64,000 nucleotides of DNA from an uncultured Microthrixaceae bacterium (GCA_963701565.1 CAVPAN010000007.1:25362-89361), one strand, 5' to 3'. Positions 2,318-48,627 are shown, counted from the first letter of the stretch. The notes: a model not told the origin generated them from the sequence alone. A program made the numbers and translations.

Positions 2318-5300
2318 CTATTCCGCGACCATTTGTGAGTGCAATTCACGCAGATCTTCGTCATCGGCGAGGCGATATTTTGCCAGTTCTTCTGCGGGTA
2401 ACCTGTGCAGCAGCTCAAGTGCACAGCGCGGCATACCGCTCGGCGTCACCCGACGTCGGGTCAGGCGAGGCTGGGCGGTTGTCTGCCGCCAGGGCATAAA
2501 CGGCTGCCAGGTCAATCCGCGTACTCGGCGGCAGATCGGTTCGTTCCCGCAGCGCATCGGCCACTTCAAGGGCCGGGATCAACTGTCCCTGCCGTGCCTG
2601 GCAGCGAGCCCGCAGCGCTTGTAACTCTGCCGTGTCCAGCTCGACGGGCAGCAGCTCGGCTTCCTTCAGCGATTCCAGGGCAGCTGCATCGTTGCCCAAG
2701 CGATACCGGCTGCGGGCGAGCCCCAGCAGACTGTCGCGAATGCTTTCGCGCAAGTCATGGCTGCCAGCTTCAGCCGATGCGACCCGGAAGTAGTTCGCGG
2801 CTTGTTCGAAGCACCGCGACGCTCCTTCCGCATCGCCTTCGAGCAATCGTCCGCGACTCAGATTGTAGGTGACGTGCCCGAGTTTCGTGAAATAGGGCAA
2901 ACACTGCGGATCCTGTTCAACCAGCCCTTCACGAATCAGTCGCGCTCGCTCGTATTCGACAAGAGCTTCATCGACACGGCCGGCATCGAACAGCAGATTT
3001 CCCAGGTTGTTCAGCGTGTCCGCGTAAACATCGGCGTAACTGAGTGTATCGGGATAAGCCGTGTATAATTTCCGGGAGGTTTCACACGCGGCGCGGTAAG
3101 AGGCTTCCGCCAGTTCAAGACGGTGCGTGACGCCGTAAACCTCCGCCAGATTGTGCAGCGTACTCGCCAGATACGATTGGTAAATCGGCACGTCGGGATA
3201 CGCCGTGGCCATTCGTTGGCGGATTGCCTGTGATTGCTTCAGGCTGTACAGGGCTGCTTCATACTGCTCGAGTGCAAATTGTGCGGTTCCCAACCCGTGG
3301 TACGCTCCCCCCACGGCATCCTGATACTCGGTGTTGTCGGGATGAGCATCCAGCACGATGAATCCGAGTTCGAGACTTTGCTGGTATTCCTGGCCCGCGA
3401 CGTCAAAGTCATCGCGTGAGTAAGCTACGTTTCCGAGATTCATGGCAAGTTGGGCCAGGGTAAGCGTGTATTCGTCGACCTCGGGAAAGTCCCGCTGCAG
3501 GCTTTGCACCAAATCGCGTGATCTTTGCCAGCAGGTTTCCGCCTGATCCCACGAAGCCTGGGCCAACTCGAGTCCGCCCCGATTCATCAAGTTTACGGCA
3601 CGCTGATACCGGTAGTTACTGACCAGCGGATAGCGTTGTGTCAGTGTTGCCAGCAGCTCATCAGCCTCGTCGTACGCCCGTCGAGCATCGTCTGTCTTGC
3701 CAGCTTGTTGGTTTAACAAAGCCAGGTAGGAGTTGCTGCTCGCCAATTGATATTGGTAATGCGTTAGTTCAGGATGACGATCGACCAATTCCTGACACAT
3801 TTGTTGCATCGCACGGAAACTGGCTTGTGCTTCTGCGATCATGCCGTGCCGCTGAAAGAGGGCACCCATGCTCTTGTGGACTTGATACAGTTCGTCGTCG
3901 CTCAAGTCAGCTCGCGGAGCATTCGACAATTCATCGTAAACCGTTTGTGCTTCCTCCCAGCTCGCCTGTTCAAGGGACGGTTGGTTCGTCTGGCCATACA
4001 ACAGCACAAGTTGAGACAGCGAATTCAGGAAATAGAGCCGGTATTTCATTTCATGCGGAAACTTCCGGCAAAGCCCTTTGCAGATCTCGCATGCCTGACG
4101 TTCATGCATTTCCGCCGTGGGATAATCGCCGAGCATTTGAAGATTATTGCCAAGATTGGAGTGACACAGCGAAAGCCAGTAGGCATATTCGGGTACGCCC
4201 GGTTGCTGGACGGTCAATCGGTGATAAGCGTCTTGCGCGGCAGCATAATGTTCGATGGCGGCATCGCGATCGCCGAGTTGGCTCTGAATTGTGGCCAGTC
4301 GAAAGTGCGATTCAGCCATTTTTTCGGTTACTTCAAATCCTGGGGATTGCTGACCGAGTAATTGCTGATAGAAATTCTGTGCCGTGGTAAGTAGTTGTTT
4401 GCGGAGCGGCTCCATACCACGGGATGTCAGATCGGGGCTTTCACTGATGTTCGATAGGTACGTTTCCACAGCTTGCAGGGCCAACTGGTAATTCTGATCA
4501 GCGCGAGTGGCTTGCGTTCGCGCTCGCATGTAGAGCGACGTCGTGATCCATAGTCCGCCTGCCAGCAGCAGGAAGACGGTGGCGACCAGGCTCGCTGCGA
4601 GCGGATTGCGCCGCGCCCAACGCCAGCTGCGTTCGGTGGCACCAGTACGTCGGGCCGTGATCGGTTGTCCCCCACGAAAATTGTGCAGGTCCAGTGCCAG
4701 ATCGGCGGCGGTGGCATAGCGTTTGGCGGGCTCCTTGTGCAGGCATTTGAGACAAATCGTTTCCAGGTCCCGTGAAACGTCGGGACGCAGATCGCGTGGT
4801 GGGATGGGTTCCTGCGATCGAACTTTTGTCAGCAAATCGAAGAAATTGGCAGCTTGAAACGGCAAGGTGCCAGTCAGCAGCTGGTAAAGGATGACACCCA
4901 AGGCATACACGTCGGCGCTCACCGTAACCGTTTCGAGTTCACCCGAAAACTGCTCGGGAGCCATGTAGGCCGGCGTGCCAATGACCGTGCCACTTTCCGT
5001 ATGGCGTTCGACGGACTGGTCAGGCCCCATTGGCAACTGCCTGGACAGGCCCAGATCGGTGATCTTCAACACGCCATCGGTCGAGATCAACACGTTATTG
5101 GGTTTCAGGTCACGGTGCACGACACCATGTTGATGAGCGTGTTGCATTGCCGTCGCCAGCGTTTCCACGCACGCAGTGGCGAATTCCAGTGGCTGCGCCA
5201 ACCCGGAGATTTTGTCACCCAACGTTCCGCCGTCGATGTACTCCAACACGAGATAGGGGCATCCTTGATGCGTTCCGTAGTCGTAAATCTGCACGAAATT

Positions 5301-7122: not shown

Positions 7123-10100
7123 ATGAACAATCCATTCCGATTTGACTGGTCTTGTTTTCCTGTTTCCTTCAATCAGATTGCCGCAACCGCGTTGCCAGCG
7201 GCTGCTGCCCGGCGGCGGTCCACCCCTGCAGGCCGACCGGCCAGAACCAAACCACGTTTATCCGGCGAGTGCCTGGAGGACCGCCGGATGCTTTCGACCA
7301 TCCAATGGACGAATCGCGGAACGGCCAGCAACGACTCGGATGGATTTAATGCACTGTTCGGGTCCAACGCGCAACAAGCTCGTCTTGTGGTGGATCGTGC
7401 GATCCTGGACTGGGAAGAGGTCGTCGTCAATTTTAATTACAACGGCGGCGGAAACACCTTTGACTTGACCGTCGAAACCGCTGACCTCGCCGTGATTGCC
7501 AATGGCGGTGTGACCGCACAAAACGCCGGCAAGCCTTCTTCGGGTCGCATTCGCTTGGACAATACGGGAACGACACACTACGTGGATCCGACTGCCGGGG
7601 ACGATGCGGAATTCGACGACAACATCACAAATGCTTTCACGGGTTACGCGATCACTCCAGCAATTGTGGGCGTGGACCTGTACGCCACGGTGGCGCACGA
7701 GTTGGGTCACGTCCTGGGCATCAGCAGTCAAAGCGGGCTGTTGATCCAGAATTTTATCACGGACACGGGCGTCGACGATCCCAACTCGGCGGCTGCGGGC
7801 AACCTGCTGGCCTTCAATGTGGGTGGCGGCCCGATCGAAGCCACGTTTACGGCTTCCGACGCGGGGCACCTGTGGGAAGGACCGGGAACCACGGCGTCCA
7901 ATAACGCCGGCTTGCCGTGGCACAATGACGTACTGATGAATCCCGGCCGCGCCATTGCCCCCAATGAACGCAACCTCATCAGCGACTTGGAGGCAGCCAT
8001 CCTCCGCGACGCCTACGGATACACGGTCACCATGCCCAGCACGCTGAATAACATGCTGGTCAATCCGAATTTCACGACGGATGTGCTGACCGTGAACGGG
8101 CAGCCGGGTGTGGTTGGCGAAGTCATCGTGGTGCAAGGCTCATCGATCCCCGGGACGCTGCACGTTTCGGTCGGTCCCTTTTCGGAAATCGTGCCGTTGT
8201 CGCAAGTCAACAGCATCGTTGTCAACGGCAACGACGGTGACGACTTCATTCGACTGGAATACAACGGGGGCCGCGACTCAGTTGAATGGCGGTAACGGCA
8301 ATGACTACATCGATTTTGCCTTCGGCACGCGGAATTTGAACAACATCGCGGGCTCCACGACGGTGACCGGAGGACCGGGTACCGATAACATTTTCGTCTA
8401 CGACAACAACAACCCGATTGCCACGACCTATTCCGTCAACGACACCCGCTTTGATCGCCCGGGCTGGGGTGGCTTCTTCTACGCAGCGGACGTGGAAGGA
8501 TTGACGCTCACAACAGGCTCGGCCGCCGACACGGTGAATGTTCCCAGTACTTACCCGGGACAGCCGGTTTTAATCAACAGCTCGGGTGGCCAGGATACCG
8601 TCAATCTGGGAAACAGCGGCAACGGCGTGCAGTCGATTCGCGCTCAAGTACAGATTCACAACGACCCGTCCTTTACCACCCTGAATATCTCTGACGTGGG
8701 GGACACGACGGCACGAAACGTCGTGATCGATCAATGGGCTGGCAATTTCGGTGCCATGGCGGGACTCGCACCCGGCTACATCACCTGGGACAACTCCGAT
8801 ATCCGAGAAATTCACATCACGACGGGGAGCGGTGACGACACCGTCGACGTGCTGCGACTGTCTGAGCGACTTTACTTGTCAAGCAACGGCGGTCATGATC
8901 AGATCGCGGTCGGAAACGACACCGACGGGCTCAGTCAAATCACGGGCGTGATGGACGTAGGGCCCAACCCCGCCTTCGTGTTCAGCGACCTGACGATCAA
9001 GGATACTGGCGGTAGCATCGGGCCGCAACGTGGGCTGGATCCCGACGAGAACGGGTTCTTTGTTACGGGACTTCCAGCTGGCTTTCGTTATGAGAATGTC
9101 CTGCAGCTCTTTGTACTTGGTGGAAACGGAGCTGATAACTACACGGTCGTCGCTCAGACCGATAATTTCATCAATGTCGATGGCGGAGCGGGGTTCAACA
9201 CGATGCTGGTGGATGATCGAACGAGCCCCTTCGCCTTCTTGCGGTCGACGTTTATTCCTTTGGCATCGACCGCTCGACGGGTGGGGTTTTCCCGACGAGC
9301 ATGTGGATAGGCTTTGCGAACGTCCAGTCCCCGACATTCTATGCTGCCGATTCGTCGACCTCGATGAACGTCTTCGGGACGCCCGCCACGATCCCTGCCG
9401 GCCAGCAGATGATCGATTTTTGCCGGCGATAACAGTGACACCGTGTCGCTGCATCCACACGACGCGCAGGGCAATCTCACAGTCAACGGGAACCTGGGTA
9501 TCGTGGCGGGGGACGGAAGCGACACACTCGTCATTGAAGACACAGCGTCGGTGAGTCCGATCGATTACCGATTCTTCAACCAGTTTGGTCCGGGTACGAC
9601 CAGTATCGGCGGCTTGGGTGCTGCGGGATTTGGGGCGGCCAACGATTTTGAACATATCGTGATCAACGCTGGCTCCGGAAACGACACGTTTCAAATCGAT
9701 TCTTTTCAGGCCGGCAGTGGATTGTCGATCAATGCCGGCGCTGGCGGCGATACCATCGACCTCACGCCAGTGAGCAAGGACTTAGCGGCCAGTATAACCA
9801 GTATTTCGTCGTTCAGTTTCAATGGCGGCGACGGTTACGATACTTTCAACGTCTACAATGACGATAGCACCAGCACGTGGGATTACACGCGGACGGCCGC
9901 GTTCCTCAGAACGCAACGCACGACCGGCGGAACCTACTTTCTGATACTCAATCAGAGTGAGACGGAATACCTGTCTGCGACAGGTGGCTCGCAGAACGAT
10001 CAATTCTTCGTCCAATCGACTCCCAGTGGATTCAGTGCGTTCGACGGGGCTGGCGGCGATGATTTTTACCTGCTCAGCAATGCCATGAGTACCAATGGCA

Positions 10101-11465: not shown

Positions 11466-11493
11466 GAAAAAACTCCCGCCCAGGGGGCGGGAT
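11466..11493 (-). terminator. Rho-independent terminator (minus strand)
   Basis: Read on the minus strand the sequence is CCCGCCCCCTGGGCGGGAGTTTTTT: a GC stem (CCCGCCC/GGGCGGG) followed by a T6 run. It lies about 70 nt downstream of the stop at 11563. Confidence 0.7.
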
Positions 11494-11562
11494 CGGGCAA
11501 TAGCCGGGTGCAACCGACGGCATGGACCTGCTTACGCGAACTTGACGGCACAGCAAACGCAA

Positions 11563-11815
11563 CTATTTGGCCTTAACCGTAATCCTGCGAGGTTTCACTG
11601 CGTCACTCTTGGGCAGGTGCAGCGTCAGCACACCCGAAACCATTTCCGCCGAAATCGAGCACGCTGGGCCCATACGGTCGCCGGATATCGCGCGGACCGC
11701 ATTTTTGGGGGTGTTTTCCGGGGCCGGTTGGCGGCCCGAATGCGGAAGGGACAGACAGGACGAAATGACAAAAAACACCAACGAACGCAGGTGAGGTCCC
11801 CTCGGTCCCTTCGCA
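11563..11815 (-). pseudogene. Degraded Hsp20/alpha-crystallin remnant
   Basis: Only the C-terminal signature ISAEMVSGVLTLHLPKSDAVKPRRITVKAK* is recognisable, and RRPYGP appears in another frame. The ~250 bp between the typA stop and this stop is too short for an Hsp20 gene. The stretch between the YG and ISAE motifs is far shorter than in the family. Confidence 0.3.
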
Positions 11816-13645
11816 TCACACCGCCGCCCGTTTGGTGCGGCGGCGGTCCGATTCCTTGAGCAGGATTTTTCGCAGGCGAATGGCCTGGGTGTGATCTCGA
11901 CCAATTCGTCGTCTTCGATGTATTCCAGGGCCACTTCCAAGCGACATCTCACGCGGCGGCTTCAGCAGGATGTTTTCGTCGCTGCCGGCCGCGCGGATGT
12001 TGGTCAGCTTCTTTTCCTTCGTCGGGTTGACGATCATGTCCTCGCTGCGGCTGTTTTCGCCGACGATCATCCCTTCGTACACGTCATCCCCGGGACGAAC
12101 AAACAGTTCGGCACGTTCTTGCAGGCCGAACAGGCGTAGGCCACGGCTCGGCCCGCTTGCCATCGGACACCAGCACGCCGTTGGCTCGGCGCGGCAGGTC
12201 CGCCTTCCTGGGGACGATAGCTGTCGAAGCGATGATGGATGATGGCCGTGCCCTTGGTGGCGTTCAGCAGTCGGGTGCGGAAGCCGATCAGTCCTCGTGG
12301 CGGGAATCGGAAAACGAGACGCGGCGTGTAATTCCCCGCGACCGACCTCGCGTACCAGCTCGCCCCGTCGTTGTCCGACCAGTTCCATGACCGGTCCCCA
12401 GCCGGTCGGAGGGAACTTCGACTACCAGCGACTCGAACGGTTCCAGGATGCGATGCCCTTCTTTGCGAGTAATCACACGGGGTTTTCCGACGGCCATTTC
12501 GTAGCCTTCCCGCCGCATTGTCTCAATCAACACCGAAAGGTGCATCACACCGCGGCCGCGTGACGGCAAAGGCGTCCCCTCGGGCAGCGGGTTCACGTGC
12601 AGGGCGACGTTACGTTGCAGCTCGCGCAGCGAGCGTTCGCGCAGCTGCCGCGTGGTGACGATACTGACCGTCGCGTCCTGCCAAGGGTGAGGTGTTGATC
12701 GTAAAGATCATCTCCAGCGTCGGCTGATCGACGGTCAGGCGTGGCAGGGCTTGGGACTGAGCTCGGCGGCAATCGTATCGCCAATTTCCACATCGTCGAT
12801 GCCGTGAATGGCCACGATATCCCCGGCGGTGGCTTTTTCGGTTTCCGACGCGACCGAGTTTTTCGAATACGAACACGCCCGGAGACTTCGGCGTGAAGTC
12901 GTTCCGTCTCGGTTGATGACAGCCACGTGTTTGACCGCGTTCGATGCTGCCGCTGCGCAGGCGGCCAATCGCGATACGGCCGTGGTAGTCCGACCAGTCC
13001 AGCGTGGTGACCAGCATCTGCGTGGGCGGCTTGTTCGTCAATTTCCGGGCCGGGTACGTGTTTCAAGATCAGTGTCCAACAGCAGTTGCATCGAAGTCGT
13101 GGGCCGAGTCGGGATCGTCGCGTGGCGTAACCCGCTTTGGCGGTGGTGTAGACATGAATGAAGTTGTCGATGTGATCATCAGCCCCCAGGTCGAGCAGCA
13201 GTTCGAGCATTTCGTCGGCGACTTCCCGGGCATCGGCTGTCGGGGCGATCGATCTTGTTGACCACGACGATCGGAACCAACCCGGCGGCGAGCGCCTTGT
13301 CGAGCACGTAACCGCGTTTGCGGCATGGGGCCCTCCGCGGCGTCCACCAGCACCAGGGCTCCGTCCGCCATCCGCACGACGCGTTCCACTTCGCCGCCGA
13401 AATCCGCGTGGCCCGGCGTGTCAATGACGTTGATTTTCACTCCCGCGATACGGGATGGAGATATTTTTGGCCAGGATCGTGATGCCGCGTTCCCGTTCCA
13501 GATCGTTGCTGTCCAGAATGCGTTCGCCGCGCAGCTGGTTGTCGCGAAACTGGCCGCTTTGACGCAGCAGGCAATCGACAAGCGTGGTTTTCCCGTGATC
13601 GACGTGGGCGATGATGACAATATTGCGAATATCTTGACGACGCAC
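11816..13645 (-). CDS. typA: Translational GTPase TypA/BipA (heavily frameshifted)
   Basis: The motifs [119 protein letters not shown] and [15 protein letters not shown] are all present. They are spread over at least 9 ORF fragments in all three minus frames. Confidence 0.8.
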
Positions 13646-14025
13646 GTGAGGTTCCAGTAGGACTGTTAAGGATCGATCAGTAAATCGGCGAACCTACAGT
13701 GTGTAATAACACCGTCGGCCGGTCAAGCGAAAAGATTCGCCACCCGCGGTACGGCGAAATAGAATAAAGTCTGGCGGGCACAGCCGTTTACAGTTGGCCG
13801 GGCTGGCTGGCTGGCTGGGAGAGTCCGCTTGAAGGATTAGCTCGCCAAACGTATATCTTACCACAAATTCCCGCAGCGGGATGGGTCGCTGGCCCGGACG
13901 AAAACAGCTGCCTGGGCTCGTCCGCCAAGCCTCCCCCGGGTTAATTAATGGGGTGCCTGTGGCGGCGGGGCAAGGCCTTCGCCAAAAATTCACAGTCTTC
14001 GCAGCTCGCAGAGCCAAATCCCATC

Positions 14026-15716
14026 ATGAAGATCAGTACGATTCCCCAGGCATATCGGAACGTTAATCGGGCGACGGAGATTATTGCGGTCCTCAGCAAG
14101 TACGGATTAGCGGACTGGATCAGTCGGTTTAACCTGGAATTTGCCAAAGGGATCCTGCGAGATCGGGGGGGCGAAGCGCTGGCCCGTCAAACCCGCGAAA
14201 TTCGCATCCGCATGGCACTTCAGGACCTTGGCCCCACCTTCATTAAGCTCGGACAACTGCTGAGTACGCGCCCCGAACTGATTGGCGCCGAGTTATCGCA
14301 AGAGTTGCGAAAGCTGCAAGATGCAGCTCCCGCCGACCCGCCCGGGGTCGTTCGCGAGACGATTGAGCAGGAGTTGGGTCAGCCGATTGAGGATTTATTC
14401 ATACGGTTTGATGATCAGCCGATTGCGTCCGCTTCCATTGGTCAGGTTCATCGCGCCGTGTTGAAAGACGGACAGCGGGTGGTGGTCAAGGTCCAGCGAG
14501 CCGGGATCTCCAAGACGATTCGACGTGACATCGACGTCATGAACTGGCTGGCTCAGCTGGCGGATCGTATTCCCGAGTTCGCACCGTATCGCCCGTCCGC
14601 CACACTGGCCGAACTGCAGCGGACGTTGCTTCGTGAGCTGGATTTCGGTCGCGAAGAACGCAATCAACAACATTTTGCCAGCCGGTTTGCCGACAATTCG
14701 CAAGCTCGTTATTCCGGAGCCGATCAGCGACCTGTGTACGCCCCGAGTCCTGACCATGGAGCTGATCGAGGGGACGAAATTGTCCGCGGTGGTGCGCCTG
14801 TGCGGAACAGCCGTTTGACCTGGAGCAGATTGCCCGCGACGGCGCGAATATCTTCCTGGAAATGATTTTCATCGACGGTTATTACCATGCTGATCCACAT
14901 CCCGGAAACATTGTGTTGCTGCCCGGCAACGTGATTGGGCTATTCGATTTCGGCATGGTGGGGCGGATCGACGAAGAGCTGCGGGAAGATATCGAAGAAG
15001 TCATGCTGTCGATTGTGCAGCGCGATCCGATCCATTTGGCGACGCTGATCAAGCGCATTGGCACACGCCCACGGACCTCGACGAAACGGCGTTTCGCACG
15101 GATCTCGCAGACTTTGTCTCCCAGTACGCTCATCAGCAGCTGAGCCAGTTTGACTTGGGAGCCGCGCTGTCCGAGATGATGGAGATGATCCATCGCTACC
15201 GGATCATGATGCCGCCCCAGGTGAGTCTGCTGATCAAGACCTTGGTGACGCTTGGAGGGCACGGCCAAATTGCTAAATCCGAGCTTCAGCATTATGGAAG
15301 TCATGCGGCCCTTCCAGCGTCGGGCGCTGTTACGCCGCATGTCTCCGGCGCGGCGGCTGAAGAAGATGCGCCGCGTCTACCTGGAACTCGAACACCTGGC
15401 CGGGACCCTGCCACGTCGCGTGATGGAAATTGTGAACCAGGTTCAAGCGGGCGAGTTTGACGTCCACCTGGAACATCGGGGGCTCAGCCCATCCATTAAC
15501 CGACTCGTGCTGGGAATGATGGCGAGCGCCCTGTTTCTGGGCTCATCACTCATGCTCAGCCAGCGGGTTCCCCCGCTGTTGTTTGCCGCTCCCGGTTTCA
15601 TGGGCGTGCACGACCTTTCGTTGTTGGGATTGGCGGGTTGCGTGGTCAGCCTGATGGTGGGCGTTCGCCTGATCATGGCCATTGGAAAGTCGGGGCATTT
15701 GGACGAAGACAAGTAG
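14026..15716 (+). CDS. ubiB: ABC1/UbiB-family atypical kinase (at least 5 frameshifts)
   Basis: MKISTIPQAYRN...GPTFIKLGQLLSTRPELIG...ASASIGQVHRAVLKDGQRVVVKVQR lies in ORF 13948..14865. TPRVLTMELIEGTKLS is in 14633..14818 and GYYHADPHPGNIVLLPGNVIGLFDFGMVG in 14862..15143. The C-terminal TM helices are in 15252..15716. Confidence 0.8.
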
Positions 15717-15741
15717 TTTTCTTGCGCGACGTCGCGTCCGC

Positions 15742-16392
15742 GGTGATGTCGGACTCGCCATTCAGGCGAGCCGTGCGGCGTAAGCCCACGGCCAGCGACG
15801 CAAACGGACGACAAAGCGTAACGTCGCCAAATGATCTCGGACGCTCCACCATTCAGGCGAGCCGTGCGGCGTAAGCCCACGACCAGCGACGCAAACGGAC
15901 CACAAAGCGTAACGTCGCCAAATGATCTCGGACGCTCCACCATTCAGGCGAGCCGTGCGGCGTAAGCCCACGACCAGCGACACAAACGGACTACAAAGCG
16001 TAACGTCGCCAAATGATCTCGGACGCTCCACCATTCAGGCGAGCCGTGCGGCGTAAGCCCACGGCCAGCGACGCAAACGGACGACAAAGCGTAACGTCGC
16101 CAAATGATCTCGGACGCTCCACCATTCAGGCGAGCCGTGCGGCGTAAGCCCACGACCAGCGACGCAAACGGACCACAAAGCGTAACGTCGCCAAATGATC
16201 TCGGACGCTCCACCATTCAGGCGAGCCGTGCGGCGTAAGCCCACGACCAGCGACGCAAACGGACCACAAAGCGTAACGTCGCCAAATGATCTCGGACGCT
16301 CCACCATTCAGGCGAGCCGTGCGGCGTAAGCCCACGACCAGCGACACAAACGGACCACAAAGCGTAACGTCGCCAAATGATCTCGGACGCTC
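15742..16392 (+). repeat. Tandem array B: 91-bp unit x7 (plus short leading partial)
   Basis: CCATTCAGG unit starts are at 15758, 15849, 15940, 16031, 16122, 16213 and 16304, exactly 91 bp apart. Consensus: CCATTCAGGCGAGCCGTGCGGCGTAAGCCCACGACCAGCGACGCAAACGGACCACAAAGCGTAACGTCGCCAAATGATCTCGGACGCTCCA. Confidence 0.95.
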
Positions 16393-16496
16393 TTTAGGTT
16401 GGTGAGGCAACGGCCCAACACGCGGGCTTACGCGGGCTTACGCCCTGCGGCTCGCCAACGTACTCGCCGAGTGAGGGCGTGCCCCGCCGGGGCAGT

Positions 16497-16726
16497 TAGG
16501 GAGCACTCGGCGCGTCGAACCGCTCATCGGTCCAGGCCTGGATGACCTCTTCGATTCGTTGATTCAGCTCATCCAAGTCGCGAATGACGTCGTCTTGACG
16601 TCGATCCAGCTCGGCGACGAAGCAGCTAGTTTCGTTCAATCCATGAACCTCTGTGGCTCAGGCCAGGCAACGCATGCGTTGATCAGATCGGCAAGTTCAC
16701 TTTGCATCGACTGCTTCGAGCGGCAT
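16497..16726 (-). CDS. Possible small coiled-coil hypothetical protein (fragmented)
   Basis: Three minus-strand pieces were found: MPLEAVDAK / ELADLINACVAWPEPQRFMD / ETSCFVAELDRRQDDVIRDLDELNQRIEEVIQAWTDERFDAPSAP*. No family was recognised, and a coding call requires two frameshifts. Confidence 0.2.
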
Positions 16727-17029
16727 GAATCAAGACGCCGTACGTTTTAACGAAGCTGCCGAATCGTCGAATTGTGACGGATATCGAATACTTCCTCGCC
16801 TGGGGCTGTTGGTTGTTAGACGGCAAGCCAGAGGAGGCCGCCGCAAACAGCCCTATTTGTGGAATAAAATGCCGATTCGACGGGCTCCGGCGGCGTGCGC
16901 GGGGCTGCGAGGTGGGAACTACCTCCCCCAAAATGTGATCGCCCATCGAGGTTGCCCATCATGGCCGACTCTATCGGCTCAAGGACGGCTCAAGGAACCA
17001 CGTGGGATGACCAAAGTGTCGGACCTACC

Positions 17030-17059
17030 CTAGACAATCAAGCAGTAAATTGAGTATTA
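17030..17059 (+). promoter_or_regulatory. Candidate sigma-70-like promoter upstream of rpsU
   Basis: TAGACA-N18-TATTAT sits in a locally AT-rich patch about 165 nt upstream of the rpsU start. This is pattern match only. Confidence 0.25.
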
Positions 17060-17226
17060 TAAGAGGTTTCCCAATCACTGCGCGGTGCGCCCCGTTGTGA
17101 TGTCCGGAAGTGAGGCAGCCGCTTGGCTCACGATCCACCGGCTGCTGCTGAAGGGTTCGTGTCGTCGGCCGTTCTGGTGGCGGATTAGTATGCGTCATTG
17201 AAATTCAGTATTGCTAAGGAGGAAAT

Positions 17227-17421
17227 GTGGTAAAGCTTGTCGTCCGGGACCGAGAAAACATTCAAGAGGCGGTTCGGAGGTTTCGCAAACTTGTCGAACG
17301 TAGTGGCATCAAGAAAGAAATGCGTCGCCGCGAGTATTACGAAAAGCCTAGCGAGATCAAGCGACGGTCGCGGCTGCGAGCCGAACGTCGTGCGCGTCGT
17401 CAGCGCTTGTTTGGCATCTAG
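17227..17421 (+). CDS. rpsU: 30S ribosomal protein S21
   Basis: The GTG start is preceded by AAGGAGG (17216-17222). The product is [64 protein letters not shown]. Confidence 0.9.
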
Positions 17422-17461
17422 TGCCACAACCAGCAAATAACCGTCGAGTACCCGAAAGCCC

Positions 17462-18457
17462 TCACGCCCGCTTCGCGGCCTGCTGAATCCAGTTGACGAT
17501 TTGCGTGTCCAGCCAGTGATCGAACGGGTTCTGGGGGCTTCGGCCGCGGGCAACGAATCCCAGGTGCCCGCCCCCCGTGACCATAAACGTTTGTGTGGAG
17601 GCGGACCAGTTCGCCGACTGGTAGATTTCTGGTCGTACGATGGGGTCGTCGTCAGCCGCGACGACAACCGTAGGGATGCCGATCGCTGGCAAGACGTCTT
17701 TGGAGCTGGCGGTTTCGTAGTATGCGGCTGCCGAGGGGAATCCGGCCAGCGGGGCAGTGATCTGTTCGTCGAATCGCAATAACGTGCCCGGATTGCGTCT
17801 CGCGCGAACGCGATCCGCATGCTGGATCCGTGATCGGCGCTGGCAAAAATCACGCCACAATTGCCGGGCGAAATAGATGTCGTAGATCCAGCCCCATCCG
17901 TCATGCAGCCGCTGACAACAATAGTCCAAATCAATCGGTGGCTGCACGGCAATCGCACTGTCAACGGTGGTGGGGATGTCCCGCAAATGTTTTCCCAGCA
18001 TCTTCAGCGTTAAATTGGCACCTAAGGAAAAGCCGCACAGTGTCATTTGTGCAGAAGGATATCGCTCAGCGACCCATTGGCAAACGGTCAACAAGTCGGC
18101 AGCACGATCGGCGTGAAACACGCCCTTGGCCAGATGCACGCCCGCTCCACAGCCGCGCATGTCCATGCGTAGCGTGCGAATCCCTTTCTTCGGCAGCCGA
18201 TCCGCCACGCGAATCAAGTAGGGGCTGGCATGGCAGCCGGCGAGTCCGTGGACGAGAATGACAACTCGACCGTTTTCGGGCCAGCGCGTCGGGCAATCGT
18301 CATGCAGGACAATCCGATCACCATCAGGCAGTTCGACGAGGTGGGTCTGGTGCGCGATATGGAATTCGCGGTACTACGAAGAACGAGAACATCGTCTGGC
18401 GGTGGTGCCTCGCAACCAGGCATGCGGCTCGAACTGCTTGGGCGGTGAAAATACCAT
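17462..18457 (-). CDS. Alpha/beta hydrolase, YheT-like (two N-terminal frameshifts)
   Basis: ORF 17462..18217 has the nucleophile elbow CGFSLGAN, and its frame stays open upstream to 18373 (VVILVHGLAGCHASPY). The N-terminus MVFSPPKQFEPHAWLRG / HHRQTMFSFF lies in two other frames, with ATG at 18457. Confidence 0.65.
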
Positions 18458-18841
18458 CCGATGTTTGCGTTGTTGTTCAACGTTGTTTGGTTACGGCGGC
18501 CCCGCTGCTGCACCGCCGCACGCGGCCCCAGTTTCAGCCAGCGGCTGTCTGCCGCGCTGGGCACGTCTTGGACAGGGACGATGAAAGGCAGGATAACCGT
18601 CCACGGCTTTGATCAGGCTTTTCTTCAGCGCAATCGTGCTCGTAATCTTAATCGGGGCCGATTTGCCTGGGGAGCAGGCTTAAAGCGGGCTGGTTGTTGA
18701 ACGGTTGCAGGCAGGTTAAAGGCAATGATATGTCCGGCTCGCGGAAATGCCAAATCCAGGCGGGAAGGGAGGGCGGACGGCCAACTGGCGGAAGCGTCCA
18801 ACTCCACGGGGAAAAGCAGTTGTTAACGTGCGCGGCTGGCG

Positions 18842-20367
18842 TTAGAGGTGCGCCTGGCTGCGCAGGTATTTGGCCTGCTCCAAGTAATGCCTGCCTCGCG
18901 CTTTGTCCCCCATGCGATTCAGCACTACGCCGTAAATCTGATTGGTTACAGGATTGTTGCGGTTAAGTGCCAGAGACTTCTGCGCCGCGGTTCGCGCTTG
19001 GTGATACATGCTGCGATGCAAGTAGACTTCTGCCAGCATACGGTACAAGATTGCCGAATCGGGATGTCGCGAGATGGCTTCTTCGAGCAGACCCGTTGTT
19101 GTCTCGAGATCTCCCTGAGCGATTAACGCTTTGGCTTTGTTGCCAATAGTTATCTCGTACGGTTGCGAGCTGGCGACGGGGACGTTGTCCGCCGCGGCAG
19201 TTGGACCGATGTTGGCTAACGACTGCACGGGTGGCAGACGTTCCGTTGATGCATCATCGTCGGACGATACGTTTTCGCAGCGGGCGGAAACCGCTTGGGC
19301 TGACTCCCAGTTGCACCGATCCTGCAAGCGGCGGGCTTCGTACCGCAGGGCCTCGGGGGTTCCGATGACCGTGCACCCGTTCAGGTTGGCGATTGAGTAG
19401 CCGAACGGTCCGACCAGCCGTTCCAAGGCCCGAGGTAAAGAGGTATCGGTGACGCGTGCCGAAACCGTTCCGGACAGACTTTCGTGGCAGCGAATGGGAT
19501 GTCCCATCCGTGCCGTCAGTTCGTCCGCCAGCTGTTGGACCTCAATGGTCTGAGCGTCGATCGTGAAGTGCCCAGTGGCCGGATCTTCGTGCACGGTCAC
19601 GTATGGTGCGCAGACCTTGGCATGGTGCGATACTGGCTTGGCGGACGCCGACTCGAGTGACGCAGCGATTACAGCACGCTCCTCTGGTTTCAGGAATTCT
19701 CGCTTGACGGCAGAGGATATTTTCAAAGTAGCGACCGTCCGATTGGCCTTGTCGCGCATCGTGACCGTACTCACGGTGGACGAGGCTTCGCTGTTCACAT
19801 GCCGGGCGATCTCGCCGCTCTCGGCGACGTGCAGCTGGACGGCATGCAATTCGACCGCGGACAAGTCGTTAGTCTCGTGGAGTGGGACGATGCCTGCCGG
19901 CTGAGTTTCGGTTGTTGCCGAATCCGCGAGTGCGGCGCGGTTTGCTCCGTCACCCGAAACGGACTCCGCTGACGTCGGGTATGGTGAACCGCTGGCAGGA
20001 ACAAAATCCCCGGAATTCTGGGGGCTCTTGGGGTCGATTGTTGGTACGAGCACTTCTGGCTTCAGCGGCGGATACGGTATCGGCTCAAACGTGTTTGCAT
20101 TTTCGCTGTGAGCGATTTCGTTCTGGTCGACTTCACAGTGGGCAACACACTGCAGGCACTCCGCTGGGGATCGGCAGTTGCCTGTAGGTGTCGGGCAAGT
20201 GTCACAGGGAAGCAAGTCGGGCAGGACGTCTACAGTTGCGGGCGTCAGCTGGGACGCCTGCAGATTTGAGCGCGGTGACGCTCGACCATCCACAAGGCTG
20301 CCACGCCGGCAGATAGTAACGCTACCCAGGCGAATAGTCTCAGAACAATACCTATCTTCGATGACAT
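18842..20367 (-). CDS. Membrane-anchored Cys-rich / TPR-tailed protein of unknown function
   Basis: ORF 18842..20293 (483 aa) ends in TPR-like helices (AKALIAQGDLETTTGLLEEAISRHPDSAILYRMLAEVYLHRSMYHQARTAAQKSLALNRNN...). A signal-anchor MSSKIGIVLRLFAWVALLSAGVAALW starts at ATG 20367, one frame off, which implies a frameshift near 20,290. Confidence 0.5.
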
Positions 20368-20661
20368 GCTCCCCCCCCGGACAACGCTGCTCGCAGGCTG
20401 ATTAGCCGCCAGCCAAAGCAAGTGTCACTCCGCCGACATGGCGAGCTGAAATCGTACAGCTCAACTTGAAAACACAGCGGTTTGAAGTTCTTATCGTCAA
20501 TGCACAGATTCGACGTGATCGAAAAAACCGGAATAACCGTTAAAGCCGGCCGATCCTGACACGATCTAGCAATGCTAGTGGCAAGGCGAGCCGCAGAGCG
20601 AGTCCCTCGGCGAGCCGCGGGGCGTAAGCCCGCGTGAGGGGTCGTTGCCCGACCAACCCTC

Positions 20662-21100
20662 AGAGCGTCTGAGATCGGTTGGGAATATTACGCTTCTTGG
20701 TTGCGTGAACGTCGCTGGTCGTGGGCTTACGCCGCACGGCTCGCCTGAATGGTGGAGCGTCGAGTTCGGTTGGCAACGTTACGCTTTGTGGTCCGTTTGC
20801 GTCGCCGGTCGTCGGCTTACGCCGCACGGCTCGCCTGAATGGTGGAGCGTCCGAGATCATTTGATGACGTTACGCTTTGTCGTCCGTTTGCGTCGCTGGT
20901 CGTGGGCTTACGCCGCACGGCTCGCCTGAATGGTGGAGCGTTCGAGTTCGGTTGGCAACGTTACGCTTTGTGGTCCGTTTGCGTCGCTGGTCGTGGGCTT
21001 ACGCCGCACGGCTCGCCTGAATGGTGGAGCGTCCGAGTTCGGTTGGCAACGTTACGCTTTGTGGTCCGTTTGCGTCGCTGGTCGTCGGCTCACGCCGGCG
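20662..21100 (-). repeat. Tandem array B': the same 91-bp unit in inverted orientation, ~5 copies
   Basis: TGGAGCG unit starts are at ~20663 (degenerate), 20753, 20843, 20934 and 21025. The units are the reverse complement of array B (…GTCGCTGGTCGTGGGCTTACGCCGCACGGCTCGCCTGAATGG), with the local variant GAGTTCGGTTGGCAACG. Confidence 0.9.
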
Positions 21101-22035
21101 GCGCGCCTGGCCGGGCGTTGTGCCAGTCGAGCCCTACGTCCAGCTGTGCGGCGGAGTGTGTGATGGCTCCCACACTAATGCGGTTGACGCCAGTTTCCGC
21201 GATCTGCCGGACCGTATTTAGGGTGATGCCTCCCGACGCTTCCAGCAGGACGGCGGGATTCTGTTGATCACGCAGCGATACTGCCGCCCGCAGCTGATCG
21301 AGCCGCATATTGTCCAGCAGCACGATATCGGGGGCTGCGGCGAGCGCGATTTTCAGCTGATCCAGTGTATCGACCTCGATTTCCAGGATCAGTCTCTCGG
21401 CGCTTGCGGCGCAAAACACCCTCGTTCGTTCGACTGCCATGGCCACGTCGAAGGAGTCGGAGGCACTCCCCTGTCCCAGTGCCAAATGGTTGTCTTTGAT
21501 GAGAACGGCGTCGAACAGGCCCAGGCGATGATTCGTGCCGCCGCCGCAGTGCACGGCATATTTTTCCATCCGCCGCCAGCCTGGGATCGTCTTGCGCGTG
21601 TCGCAGATCACAGCGCCGGTATCGACGATCTGCGCGACATACTGCGCGGTCAGCGAGGCGATCCCTGACAAGTGGCCGATCGTGTTCAGCAAGATGCGCT
21701 CCATCGCCAGGATATCGCGGGCAGAACCGGACAAGCTGCCCAGCTTAGTCCGGGCGGCGAGGACCTGTCCGTCCTGCAGGCATGGCTGCCATTTGACGGC
21801 AATCGCCATTTCATCAATCAGCAGGTCGGCCACTCTTAATCCAGCCGCAATACCGGCCGCACGCGCAACAACCGCTGCGCTACCCTCGTGCCTCCCGCGG
21901 AATCAGCGAGAGGGATGTGATATCGTAGGAGCGGCCGAAGTCTTCTCGAATCGCCAGCCTCAAAATGGAACGCATGTCGTATTCCAATTCCGCGTCCCAA
22001 TCGACTTGTCGATGAATGATCGAATTCGCATTCAT
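21090..22035 (-). CDS. nadC: Nicotinate-nucleotide pyrophosphorylase (quinolinate phosphoribosyltransferase), one frameshift
   Basis: ORF 21090..21833 has ICDTRKTIPGWRRMEKYAVHCGGGTNHRLGLFDAVLIKDNH and LLEASGGITLNTVRQIAETGVNRISVGAITHSA. The N-terminus MNANSIIHRQVDWDAELEY...ITSLSLIPREARG lies in ORF 21880..22215. The joint is near 21,880. Confidence 0.8.
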
Positions 22036-22207
22036 GATGTTCTTGGACGGTTCCTTGTGGCGGCCGTTGTTAACGCGCCATAATAGAGCAGGACGGCCGC
22101 CAGTCGTCCACCGCGTTCGCACAGGAGTCGCTACGCCCTGCGACAGCTTCGTTGCAGAAGAAATGATCCACGCGGCAACCCGCCTGTCAAACAATTGGTC
22201 CGAAACG

Positions 22208-22658
22208 ATGTCCACTCATGCCCGGTTGACGAAGGCTGGCCGTACTCGGCAAAAGGCGGCTTCTCAAGCGGGTACTCGGGCAGCGCCTGCCACTGAGTTG
22301 TTCCTGGCCCTGGTCGTCTGCATCGGTCTGGCGGCCATGCTCGGCTGGACATCCTGTCGAGGCCAGGGGCATCGGCTGTTGGATCTCGGACGAAGTTTCA
22401 CCGCAGGCGGTCCCCTATTGCGTAGAATTCACCACAGCAACCTGGCAGGACCTGGCTCAGATTCCCGGCATCGGCGAGACGCTTGCCAAGCGGATTGTTG
22501 ACGCTCGGGATCGAGAAGGAAAGTTGGACAGCCTCGACGACTTGCGGAAGGTTCGCGGGATTGGTCCTCAAAAACTGATCCAGATCGGCCAGCATCTTCA
22601 ATTCACAGAAACAGGTCGCCCGGCGGCCGACTCGCAACCCAGAGAAAATCGCGAATGA
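22208..22658 (+). CDS. ComEA-like helix-hairpin-helix DNA-binding protein (one frameshift)
   Basis: [11 protein letters not shown]...[16 protein letters not shown] supplies a TM segment. After a shift near 22,400 the reading gives [49 protein letters not shown]. The TGA at 22656-22658 overlaps the uvrB ATG. Confidence 0.7.
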
Positions 22659-24696
22659 AGTTCGAACTGGAAAGTCCGTTTGCCCCGGCGGGGGATCAGC
22701 CGCAGGCGATCGAAGCCCTGGTGCGCGGGTTGCAAGAGCAGCGTCGTCACCAGGTGTTGATGGGAGTCACGGGGTCAGGCAAGACATTCACGATGGCCAA
22801 CGTGATTGCCGCCATGCAGAAACCCACGCTGATTATCTCGCACAACAAGACCTTGGCGGCGCAGCTTTACTCCGAGTTTCGGCAATTCTTCCCCCGTAAC
22901 GCGGTCCACTATTTTGTCAGCTATTACGATTACTACCAACCGGAAGCTTACATTCCGCAACGCGACATCTATATCGAAAAAGATGCTTCGATCAATTCCG
23001 AGATTGACCGCTTGCGACTGGCATCCACCAGCTCTTTGGTCAGTCGCAGCGATGTGATCATCGTGGCCAGTGTTTCCTGCATCTATGGTTTGGGATCGCC
23101 TGACGACTATCGCAGCATGATGGTGGCGCTGCATACGGGTCAGCTGGTCGATCGTGACGACGTGCTGCGGCGGTTGATCGACATCCAATACGAGCGAAAC
23201 GATGTCGGATTCGAACGTTCCAAGTTCCGGGTGCGCGGGGACTGTGTTGAAGTCTGGCCGGCGTACGAGGACTACGCTTATCGCATTGAGTTATGGGGTG
23301 ACGAGATTGAGCAGCTCTCGATCATCAATCCGATCACCGGGGAACCAATCAGCACCATGGATCGCATGTTCCTCTACCCGGCAAAACACTTTGTCATGCC
23401 TGATGATCGCATTGCGGCCGCGGTGGAGACGATCCGGGAAGAACTAGAGGTGCGGTTGGAGCAGTTGCGGCAGCATGGCAAGCTGTTGGAGGCTCAACGC
23501 TTGTCGGCACGGACGCGTTACGATTTGGAAATGATGACAGAAGTTGGCTACTGTCCCGGCATCGAGAATTACAGTCGTCCCTTGTCGGGTCGTCCTCCCG
23601 GCTCCACGCCTGACACTTTGTTCAATTTTTTCCCGGAAGAGTTCTTGTTGTTCGTCGACGAATCCCACGTAACGATTCCGCAAATCCGCGCGATGTTCGC
23701 CGGAGATCAAAGCCGCAAGCAGACGTTAGTGGAACATGGGTTTCGCCTGCCCAGCGCGCTTGACAACCGACCGCTGAAATTCGAGGAATGGGAAGCCAAG
23801 GTGCATCGTGCGATTTTTGTCTCCGCGACGCCGGGCGAGTATGAGCTGCGGCAGTCGGGTGGGGAAGTAATCGAGCAGGTCATCCGACCCACGGGACTGC
23901 TCGATCCGGTCCTGGAGATATTTCCGGCGCGGCAACAGGTTCCACACTTGTTGGAGCAAATCCGTGAGCGCGCGCAGTTGGGGGAACGCGTCCTGGTCAC
24001 CACACTCACCAAGCGGCTGGCCGAAGACCTATCCGCTTACTTGTGCGAGCAGGGAGTGGCCTGTAAATGGCTGCACAGCGAGCTGGATGCCTTCGCACGC
24101 GTGGATTTACTGAGGGAGCTGCGGGAAGGGGCGCTTCGAAGCGCTCGTGGGCGTCAACCTGTTGCGCGAAGGACTCGATCTGCCGGAAGTCTCCCTGGTG
24201 GCGATTCTGGACGCGGATAAAGAGGGATTCTTGCGGAGTGAGACTTCATTGGTTCAGACAATCGGCCGTTCGCGCGAAATGTAAATGCCAAAGTGATCCT
24301 CTATGCCGATACGATCACCGACTCCATGCAACTCGCGATCGACGAGACGCAACGTCGGCGAACGTTGCAGGAGGCCTACAACCAGCGACACGGCATCACC
24401 CCAGAGACTATCAAGAAATCGATTCAGGCGAGTATTGAATCCGATGTTCAGCGCACTGCGCCGCCCGCGAGGCGGTCGCGGCCAGCGACGCTGCACCGGC
24501 CGCCAGCCAGGAATATCTGGAGGAGCTGGAAGCGGAAATGATGAAGGCAGCTGACGAGTTGGATTTCGAGCGGGCTGCAATGCTCCGCGACCGCATCCGG
24601 GAGCTGCGTGACGGCAATGGCGTCGCCAGTAAACCCAAAACAGGACGACGGGGACGAAAATCGAGTCGCAGCGTCCCGCGTCCGAAAAAGATTTAG
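22655..24696 (+). CDS. uvrB: Excinuclease ABC subunit B (3' quarter frameshifted at least 3 times)
   Basis: ORF 22655..24220 reads [23 protein letters not shown]...[15 protein letters not shown]... Other frames carry [40 protein letters not shown] and [23 protein letters not shown]. They also hold the UVR-domain tail [26 protein letters not shown], ending at TAG 24694-24696. Confidence 0.85.
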
Positions 24697-24814
24697 AGCC
24701 TATCCCAAAAGCTCGTACGTAGTGTGGGCCTGCTGGCCCGCGAAGAGGTTTTGGGATAGGCTCTTGGCTCGAGCGCCACGCAATAAAAATCCGCCGCTCG
24801 ATCGGGTTACAATC

Positions 24815-48245: not shown

Positions 48246-48627
<382 letters not shown>

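Follow-up and report, generated by a model that had tools for sequence, protein, structure and literature searches.

The stretch analyzed here, referred to below as the window, comprises 64,000 nucleotides of a contig deposited for an uncultured Microthrixaceae bacterium (GCA_963701565.1 CAVPAN010000007.1:25362-89361). Within it, two tandem arrays of one 91-bp unit, array B and array B′, stand in opposite orientation in two intergenic spacers and enclose a small open reading frame (ORF) and the genes for ribosomal protein S21 (rpsU), an alpha/beta hydrolase and a TPR protein. An earlier note on this DNA had described the layout as a left inverted repeat, 4.1 kb of enclosed sequence and a right inverted repeat, and had stated that no recombinase gene lies inside; both descriptions are correct, and neither a recombinase nor a transposase is found among the enclosed and flanking genes (small ORF, S21, hydrolase, TPR protein, ubiB and nadC). 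Two relatives, L120 and L121, were found via an identical S21 protein and are used for comparison. The features of the locus, with the repeated hairpin within each unit called the core and its conserved 5′ tag called the foot, are listed below by coordinates and strand.

13948-15716 (+), ubiB (ABC1 kinase), the left flank, split here over three frames; the L120 orthologue matches PF03109/PF27536
15758-16394 (+), array B, seven head-to-tail 91-bp units (L1-L7)
16395-16433 (+), left inner linker, 79% complementary to its right counterpart; contains a 10-nt duplication, GGGCTTACGC, and a small hairpin (GTTGG...CCAAC)
16434-16456 (−), single inverted core that closes the left element and makes up a doublet, feet outward, with the core at 16311-16333, the last of the array, like a REP doublet forming hairpin (REPIN; REP, repetitive extragenic palindrome)
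16497-16800 (−), approximate limits, small conserved ORF, frameshifted, converging on ubiB across the left element
17227-17421 (+), rpsU (ribosomal protein S21), PF01165
17462-18460 (−), alpha/beta hydrolase, PF00561 and PF12146, N-terminal part out of frame
18842-20545 (−), TPR protein with its upstream region, TPR_17/19, 5′ part out of frame
20609-20631 (+), single core on the inner side of the right element, making up a doublet with 20723-20745 (−), the first core of the array
20662-21115 (−), array B′, five units on the minus strand (R1-R5)
21090-22115 (−), nadC (quinolinate phosphoribosyltransferase), the right flank; homology to the relatives from 21121

Tandem arrays were called with Tandem Repeats Finder (TRF) and inverted arms with a repeat finder, and the units were then read in register. 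TRF places the left array at 15758-16392 (period 91, 7.0 copies, matches 98%) and the right array at 20663-21109 (period 91, 4.9 copies, matches 89%), the consensus of the latter being the reverse complement of the former. The seven units spaced by 91 bp that had been described for array B are borne out by this, with a start at 15758 instead of 15742, as are the approximately five reverse-complement units of array B′, with the corrections that one unit is 90 nt long and that a degenerate outermost unit extends to 21115. Each 91-bp unit consists of CCATTCA, then the core GGCGAGCCGTGCGGCGTAAGCCCACG and then a 58-nt linker, and the cores of array B start at 15765, 15856, 15947, 16038, 16129, 16220 and 16311. 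The left array additionally shows a higher-order period of 273 bp (three units), with L1 identical to L4, and L2 identical to L5 and L6. In array B′ the innermost unit, R5, is divergent, R4 is the 90-nt unit, R3 is of the left-array type, R2 follows, and the outermost unit, R1 (21025-21115), is degenerate and overlaps the nadC stop, so that the last ~10 codons of nadC and its stop lie inside it. The edge units R1 and R5 are the most diverged of the array units. Inverted arms of 337 nt, 93% complementary and including several perfect 52-nt blocks, connect the two loci.

The inverted symmetry continues inward past both arrays, as had been noted earlier, and does so in two stretches: 16354-16433 against 20622-20701 (80 nt, 79%) and 16427-16467 against 20598-20638 (41 nt, 88%). 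Each array is followed on its inner side by a linker of ~40 nt with its own small hairpin and then by one core on the opposite strand. The core copies that the earlier note had seen outside the arrays are these two, at 16434-16456 (−) and 20609-20631 (+), together with a partial copy of the foot at 20585-20597 in the right element. For the 23-nt core GGCGAGCCGNGNGGCGTAAGCCC, 13 matches are present in the 64-kb window, compared with 0.02 expected by chance, and all 13 fall within 15765-16456 or 20609-21017. When folded as single-stranded DNA (ssDNA), the left doublet (16304-16462) and the right doublet (20603-20759) each have their cores paired, with z = −3.3 and z = −3.9, respectively, relative to shuffled sequences. 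Single 91-nt units, on either strand, are no more stably folded than shuffled sequences (z from −0.3 to −1.6), and structured RNA at the level of the unit was dropped as a candidate for this reason. The two loci are two copies of one composite element in opposite orientation, not a repeat plus extra flank, and each consists of an inverted core doublet (16311...16456 and 20609...20745) in which the outer arm and its linker have been multiplied in a satellite-type expansion.

Several other readings of the arrays were tried and set aside. A coding function is not compatible with a unit length that is not a multiple of 3 and with a stop in every frame per 273 nt; a tRNA or tmRNA origin was rejected with neither detected in the window. 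The GTTRRRY/RYYYAAC box of an attC site and the unique spacers of a CRISPR array are both absent from the sequence. For a composite transposon, the transposase is absent and the enclosed genes are syntenic core genes. A promoter and terminator scan gave none in the arrays, with counts at background level, and with Rfam 15 the arrays had no match, either at the gathering score across the window or at E ≤ 10 within 15650-16550.

The core is not confined to this locus. A scan with GGCGAGCCGNNNGGCGTAAGCC in one genome per species returned at least 119 loci, and at least 113 of these come from about 55 Planctomycetota assemblies belonging to the Gemmatales, Planctomycetales and Pirellulales (Gemmataceae, Limnoglobus, Zavarzinella, Fimbriiglobus, Planctomycetaceae, Schlesneria, Planctomicrobium, Pirellulaceae and Pirellulales), several genomes having at least 6-15 core loci each. 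The counts and frequencies that follow for this family are among the matches listed. Six loci belong to other phyla; they look like chance matches in coding sequence and do not pair. The element comprises a 5′ GGCGAG foot and a hairpin, CCGNNN-GGC[GTAA]GCC-NNCGG, that is imperfect in that a single base bulges from its 5′ arm. The stem of the planctomycete copies is made by three free bases and five bases that lie beyond the search pattern, and all five variable stem pairs are kept in 100 of 119 copies. The 52 distinct variants retain a mean of 4.35 pairs, compared with 3.90 ± 0.07 when the partners are permuted (2000 permutations, maximum 4.13), showing that the stem covaries and that the hairpin is conserved. 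The foot is invariant in all matches, though it is required by the search pattern, and is neither GTAG nor CGTC.

Around half of the copies form inverted doublets, the partner lying downstream in 62 cases and upstream in one, with spacers of 19-177 nt, and the feet of the doublets point outward in the family as in both elements of the window. The genes beside the 113 planctomycete cores are unrelated housekeeping genes; no recurrent family was found among these neighbors, and no transposase among the most frequent families listed. Statistics on gene orientation and ORFs rest on a crude gene caller that was validated only roughly on L120. By this caller, the gene upstream of a single core is co-directional in 25 cases and opposite in 11, and 20 of 126 core copies lie inside predicted ORFs; single cores often start 2-40 nt past the stop of a co-directional gene. 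A tandem repeat lies within 60 nt of 17 of 123 cores, compared with a tandem-repeat coverage of 1.7% of bases, and some of the tandem duplications at cores elsewhere consist of direct copies plus one inverted copy, as in the window.

Further observations were made on individual members of the family. A viral contig (L127, IMGVR_UViG_3300022563_000002) carries three single cores on its minus strand (2655-2676, 4239-4260 and 4762-4783), all in one orientation, sense, in short intergenic gaps such as that between a stop codon and the next ATG, which would mean that a planctomycete phage carries or mimics the host repeat. In Planctomycetaceae metagenome-assembled genomes (loci L030, L033, L036, L063, L073, L097 and L113), a second dispersed motif, GAAACACAGAGGCACAGAG, often stands ~20-40 nt past the core, while other copies have CGTGGGATAGGCATCCTGCCTGTC after it. 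On the upstream side a CTAAGT...(25 nt)...CA is loosely conserved; these flanks suggest larger composite elements in that family. A subfamily of the core (L011, L055, the minus-strand copy of L113, and L117) keeps the foot and GGCGTAAGCC and then continues with AAATGG(T/C)ACTC..., its lower stem not closed, and has a GGCGTTAGCC/GGCGCTAGCC-like copy about 40 nt further on.

The closest published counterparts are hairpins associated with class 3 TnpA_Y1 (HuH-Y1) genes, which occur mainly in Planctomycetes, Acidobacteria and Proteobacteria (Quentin, Siguier, Chandler & Fichant 2018, PMC6006769). Table S1 of that study lists REP-like hairpins flanking class 3 genes in P. limnophilus (CACGAGCCGGAAGCGTGAGCGACGGGT), Legionella (CCGAGCCGCGACCGTAAGGGAGCGGA) and Solibacter (CAGAGCCGCGACCGTTAGGGAGCG), and such hairpins reach high copy numbers, ~600 in Solibacter (PMC6006769). 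Set beside them, the Planctomycetota core, GGCGAGCCGGGCGGCGTAAGCCCCCGGA, shares a CGAG foot, a CCG...CGG lower stem, an irregular middle, a GTNA tetraloop, a short upper stem (2-3 bp) and a length of 26-30 nt, and the published set includes a planctomycete. The match is not exact, however: the upper stem of our core is 3 bp long (GGC/GCC), one bulge takes the place of the tandem GA mismatches of the published hairpins, and its foot is G-CGAG where the published foot is 'CnGA'. By this resemblance in sequence, the core is filed here as a putative class 3-type REP-like hairpin. Apart from these few manually listed hairpins beside class 3 HuH-Y1 genes, the core is undescribed in Rfam and in the literature searched, where queries by sequence and by topic returned only primers and unrelated papers and no description of it.

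The family also has much in common with REPIN/RAYT systems (Bertels & Rainey 2011) and GTAG/CGTC-tagged REPs (Di Nocera et al. 2013, PMC3733652), namely a short imperfect palindrome (20-40 nt) with a conserved unpaired tag, and outward-tagged inverted doublets that are intergenic and dispersed beside unrelated genes. Its tag is nonetheless neither GTAG nor CGTC and, while classical REPs are usually specific to a species or genus, this core is common to three orders of a phylum. Like the bacterial interspersed mosaic elements of E. coli, the arrays are intergenic clusters of REP hairpins with fixed linkers after gene ends (up to about a dozen hairpins in E. coli), but instead of alternating REPs they contain 5-7 units in one orientation, with a 91-bp period and one inverted closing copy.

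The relatives bear on the age of the arrays. L120 is ~80-82% identical to the window in bipA and ubiB and ~69-77% identical in the other shared genes, and L121 is more distant. The window, L120 and L121 agree in gene order and orientation, and no inversion is fixed between the window and the two relatives. Homology to L120 ends exactly at 15714, at the ubiB stop (15714-15716), picks up again at the small ORF, is lost a second time upstream of the TPR gene and returns within nadC. The small ORF (~100 aa), for which no Pfam family was matched, is homologous at 16527-16762 to L120 9290-9533, where it is called as a 102-aa gene (9271-9579, −). There is no copy of the core at the L120 locus, and the TPR-nadC spacer of L121 is 113 nt of unaligned, repeat-free sequence. 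What L120 has instead are GTAG-type REPs (GTAGAACCATTGTCCTCAATGGTTC) in both spacers, including a GTAG REP doublet in the ubiB spacer (9151-9226). It also has an inverted array pair of its own, at 11472-11738 and 13637-14036, consisting of ~190-bp tandem arrays of GTAG-tagged REP hairpins that are 96% complementary over 197 nt, lie 2.1 kb apart and bracket only the TPR gene. Arrays B and B′ are absent from both relatives and were thus gained recently and in this lineage, in spacers to which REP-type repeats are drawn.

The quality and origin of the window affect how closely the units can be compared. Conserved genes between 1 and 26 kb are split over two to four frames (bipA 11816-13645; ubiB 13948-15716; the hydrolase gene, 17462-18460; the TPR gene, 18842-20545; nadC 21090-22115; uvrB 22655-24700), and their L120 orthologues are intact. 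Such breaks point to indels, approximately one every 0.5-1 kb as in a long-read assembly that was not polished, and not to pseudogenes; single-base differences between units should consequently not be over-read. The window also looks like a misjoined metagenome contig, with joins at ~26280 and ~26870: planctomycete DNA of 57-60% GC extends to ~26.3 kb, a fragment of ~0.55 kb with 52% GC, encoding a CobT-like protein whose reading frame runs on into the next part, extends to ~26.87 kb, and the remainder to 64 kb is 70-77% GC and actinobacterium-like. The planctomycete part is assigned to the Pirellulaceae by its predicted S21 protein, which falls in a 90% protein cluster named Pirellulaceae/Pirellula/Anatilimnocola. 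A full-length class A RNase P RNA (48249-48622, −, 214.9 bits) is part of the high-GC DNA, hence of the other organism.

A second intergenic satellite is present at 387-2063, with 25.4 copies of a 66-bp unit (matches 90%). It starts about 100 nt past the stop of a CBS-domain gene (+), sits between that gene and a convergent Ser/Thr kinase gene (−), and, like array B, is closed by one inverted partial unit (2101-2138; 38 nt, 92% complementary); a further degenerate copy lies at ~2220-2295. The 66-bp unit contains GGCGAGCTCGG-type hairpins that are reminiscent of the core foot.

Taken together, these data make it probable that each array arose by local expansion of a mobile, REP-like hairpin, a selfish type of DNA dispersed through Planctomycetota, with the bracketing of the genes between them a by-product; the enclosure of a ~4-kb segment is most likely incidental, not a DNA switch. 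Two copies of one doublet of ~150 nt would have entered two spacers, ubiB-small ORF and TPR-nadC, and in each copy the arm and its 65-nt linker next to the stop of the flanking gene would have been amplified head to tail. Slippage or unequal crossing-over is the likely mechanism of amplification, as indicated by the 273-bp higher-order repeat and by the degeneracy of the edge units. Mobilization of the core as ssDNA is probably the work of a class 3 HuH-Y1 enzyme whose gene would lie in another part of the genome, a proposal based on the core's match in sequence and shape to the 'atypical' REP-like hairpins adjacent to class 3 genes. The inverted arrangement then follows from the genes: the cores of the left array (+) begin 48 nt past the ubiB (+) stop, those of the right array (−) follow the nadC (−) stop, the first intact one at a distance of 73 nt, and since each amplified arm is sense to the gene preceding it and ubiB and nadC point towards each other, the arrays are inverted. 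This placement, after a stop and sense to the upstream gene, is the usual one in the core family. The hairpins would probably be present in the 3′ untranslated RNA of ubiB and nadC. REPs in 3′ untranslated RNA are known as decay barriers or weak terminators, and the hairpins here may act in a similar way.

The earlier note had reasoned that the pairing here would be incidental if all spanning reads supported one orientation and the unit were a common REP-like element dispersed genome-wide. The findings largely agree with this, in that the core is spread across Planctomycetota and both relatives keep the enclosed genes in one orientation, with the qualification that the 91-bp unit itself was not found elsewhere: the JGI metagenomes gave 0 matches and then one match, a chance match of the 91-mer pattern to an AT-rich TARA contig. 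The latter result weighs against local expansion of a mobile hairpin, as do several others. The arrays of 5-7 direct 91-bp units are far larger than the tandem duplications beside cores elsewhere, and the core occurs at only these two sites within the ~26 kb of planctomycete DNA in the window. The loci examined do not contain the P. limnophilus or Legionella variant in exact form, and a search for HuH-Y1 genes by a motif regular expression and by phmmer, with IS200 TnpA and E. coli RayT as queries, gave none in the window or the 750 kb of related loci. Finally, the independent inverted array pair of L120 hints that local inverted copying may not be pure chance. Inverted array pairs that recur with two different repeat families lead us to keep a non-trivial probability for a mechanism that favors local inverted copies.

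The most direct alternative is that the locus is a working DNA switch, in which RecA recombination between the arms flips the 4.1-kb block and changes its transcriptional context or its orientation relative to replication. The earlier note had pointed to RecA-dependent inversion, and the arms do have what recombination needs, with 93% identity over 337 nt and several perfect 52-nt blocks; homologous inversion of the enclosed block would be possible on these grounds. The only hint that recombination between the inverted repeats has taken place is R3, which differs from left-array units at 3 positions and from its neighbors R2 and R4 at 8-10. This is the kind of pattern for which the earlier note had proposed comparing the units of B and B′ as a sign of gene conversion, and it suggests sequence exchange between the arrays, by conversion or two crossovers, which counts in favor of a switch; an ancestral polymorphism, with both unit types ancestral, fits it as well. 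The array pair around the TPR gene in L120 could likewise be read in favor of a switch. That reading has to contend with the identical gene order and orientation in the window and both relatives, and with the lack of a site-specific recombinase among the enclosed and flanking genes. The breakpoints both fall between genes and no promoter-like signal stands out in the arrays, leaving no evident regulatory consequence of flipping, and the inverted layout is already accounted for by the directions of the flanking genes. The locus resembles invertons, shufflons and long-inverted-repeat inversions in that a segment is bounded by inverted repeats, but the short repeats, the adjacent site-specific recombinase and the switched promoter or coding end that characterize invertons are all missing, and no second orientation is seen in the two relatives. 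We consider a working switch unlikely.

Selection for copy number of a functional RNA, in which the arrays are multi-hairpin modules of 3′ untranslated regions serving as a protein sponge, a decay barrier or an insulator, appears similarly improbable. It would account for the position of the cores, which are sense to the upstream gene in both arrays and 48-73 nt past its stop, for single family cores often lying 2-40 nt past a co-directional stop among the matches listed, and for the three sense intergenic copies on the viral contig. The GNRA-type GUAA loop and the covarying stem would also suit an RNA, but recognition of ssDNA by a HuH enzyme equally predicts covariation of the hairpin. The lack of any Rfam match even at E ≤ 10, the shuffle-level folding of single units and the absence of terminator-like sites from the arrays all count against it, and arrays that are missing from both relatives are not conserved at this locus. 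An assembly artifact, by which one array or the inverted arrangement arose in a noisy, chimeric long-read assembly, might be suspected from the frameshifts in bipA, ubiB, uvrB, nadC, the hydrolase gene and the TPR gene and from the chimeric GC profile of the window. The earlier note had itself raised the possibility that one array is a misassembled copy of the other. Yet the arrays are not identical (93%), their unit subtypes differ, the inner flanks match only at 79-88%, and the unique sequence on either side of each array is collinear with two independent relatives, the gene order across each array being the same as in those relatives. Moreover, at 0.45-0.64 kb the arrays are far below typical long-read length. 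An artifact is thus highly improbable.

Local expansion of a dispersed hairpin remains the preferred reading. A broader proposal can be built on it, in which a REP system common to the Planctomycetota, characterized by its GGCGAG foot and GUAA loop and perhaps dependent on class 3 HuH-Y1 enzymes, gives rise to head-to-tail arrays of a single doublet arm at gene 3′ ends and to local inverted copies of them. Inverted repeats of this kind, which occur independently in two related Pirellulaceae at one locus and with different repeat families, would recombine, such that the rpsU-TPR block or the TPR gene could flip naturally; in this full form it is a long shot.

With this reading, what appeared to be an inverted-repeat cassette becomes an explained case of REP-type clusters after gene ends. 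Such arrays are plausible hot spots of rearrangement, and of assembly trouble, in these genomes. The core itself is common to the Gemmatales, Planctomycetales and Pirellulales and to a viral contig, a breadth that is unusual for REPs, and it would offer a convenient handle both on the almost uncharacterized class 3 HuH-Y1 enzymes and on the biology of gene 3′ ends in planctomycetes. The main interest of the locus lies in this conservation of the core across a phylum and in the barely studied enzyme class to which it points.

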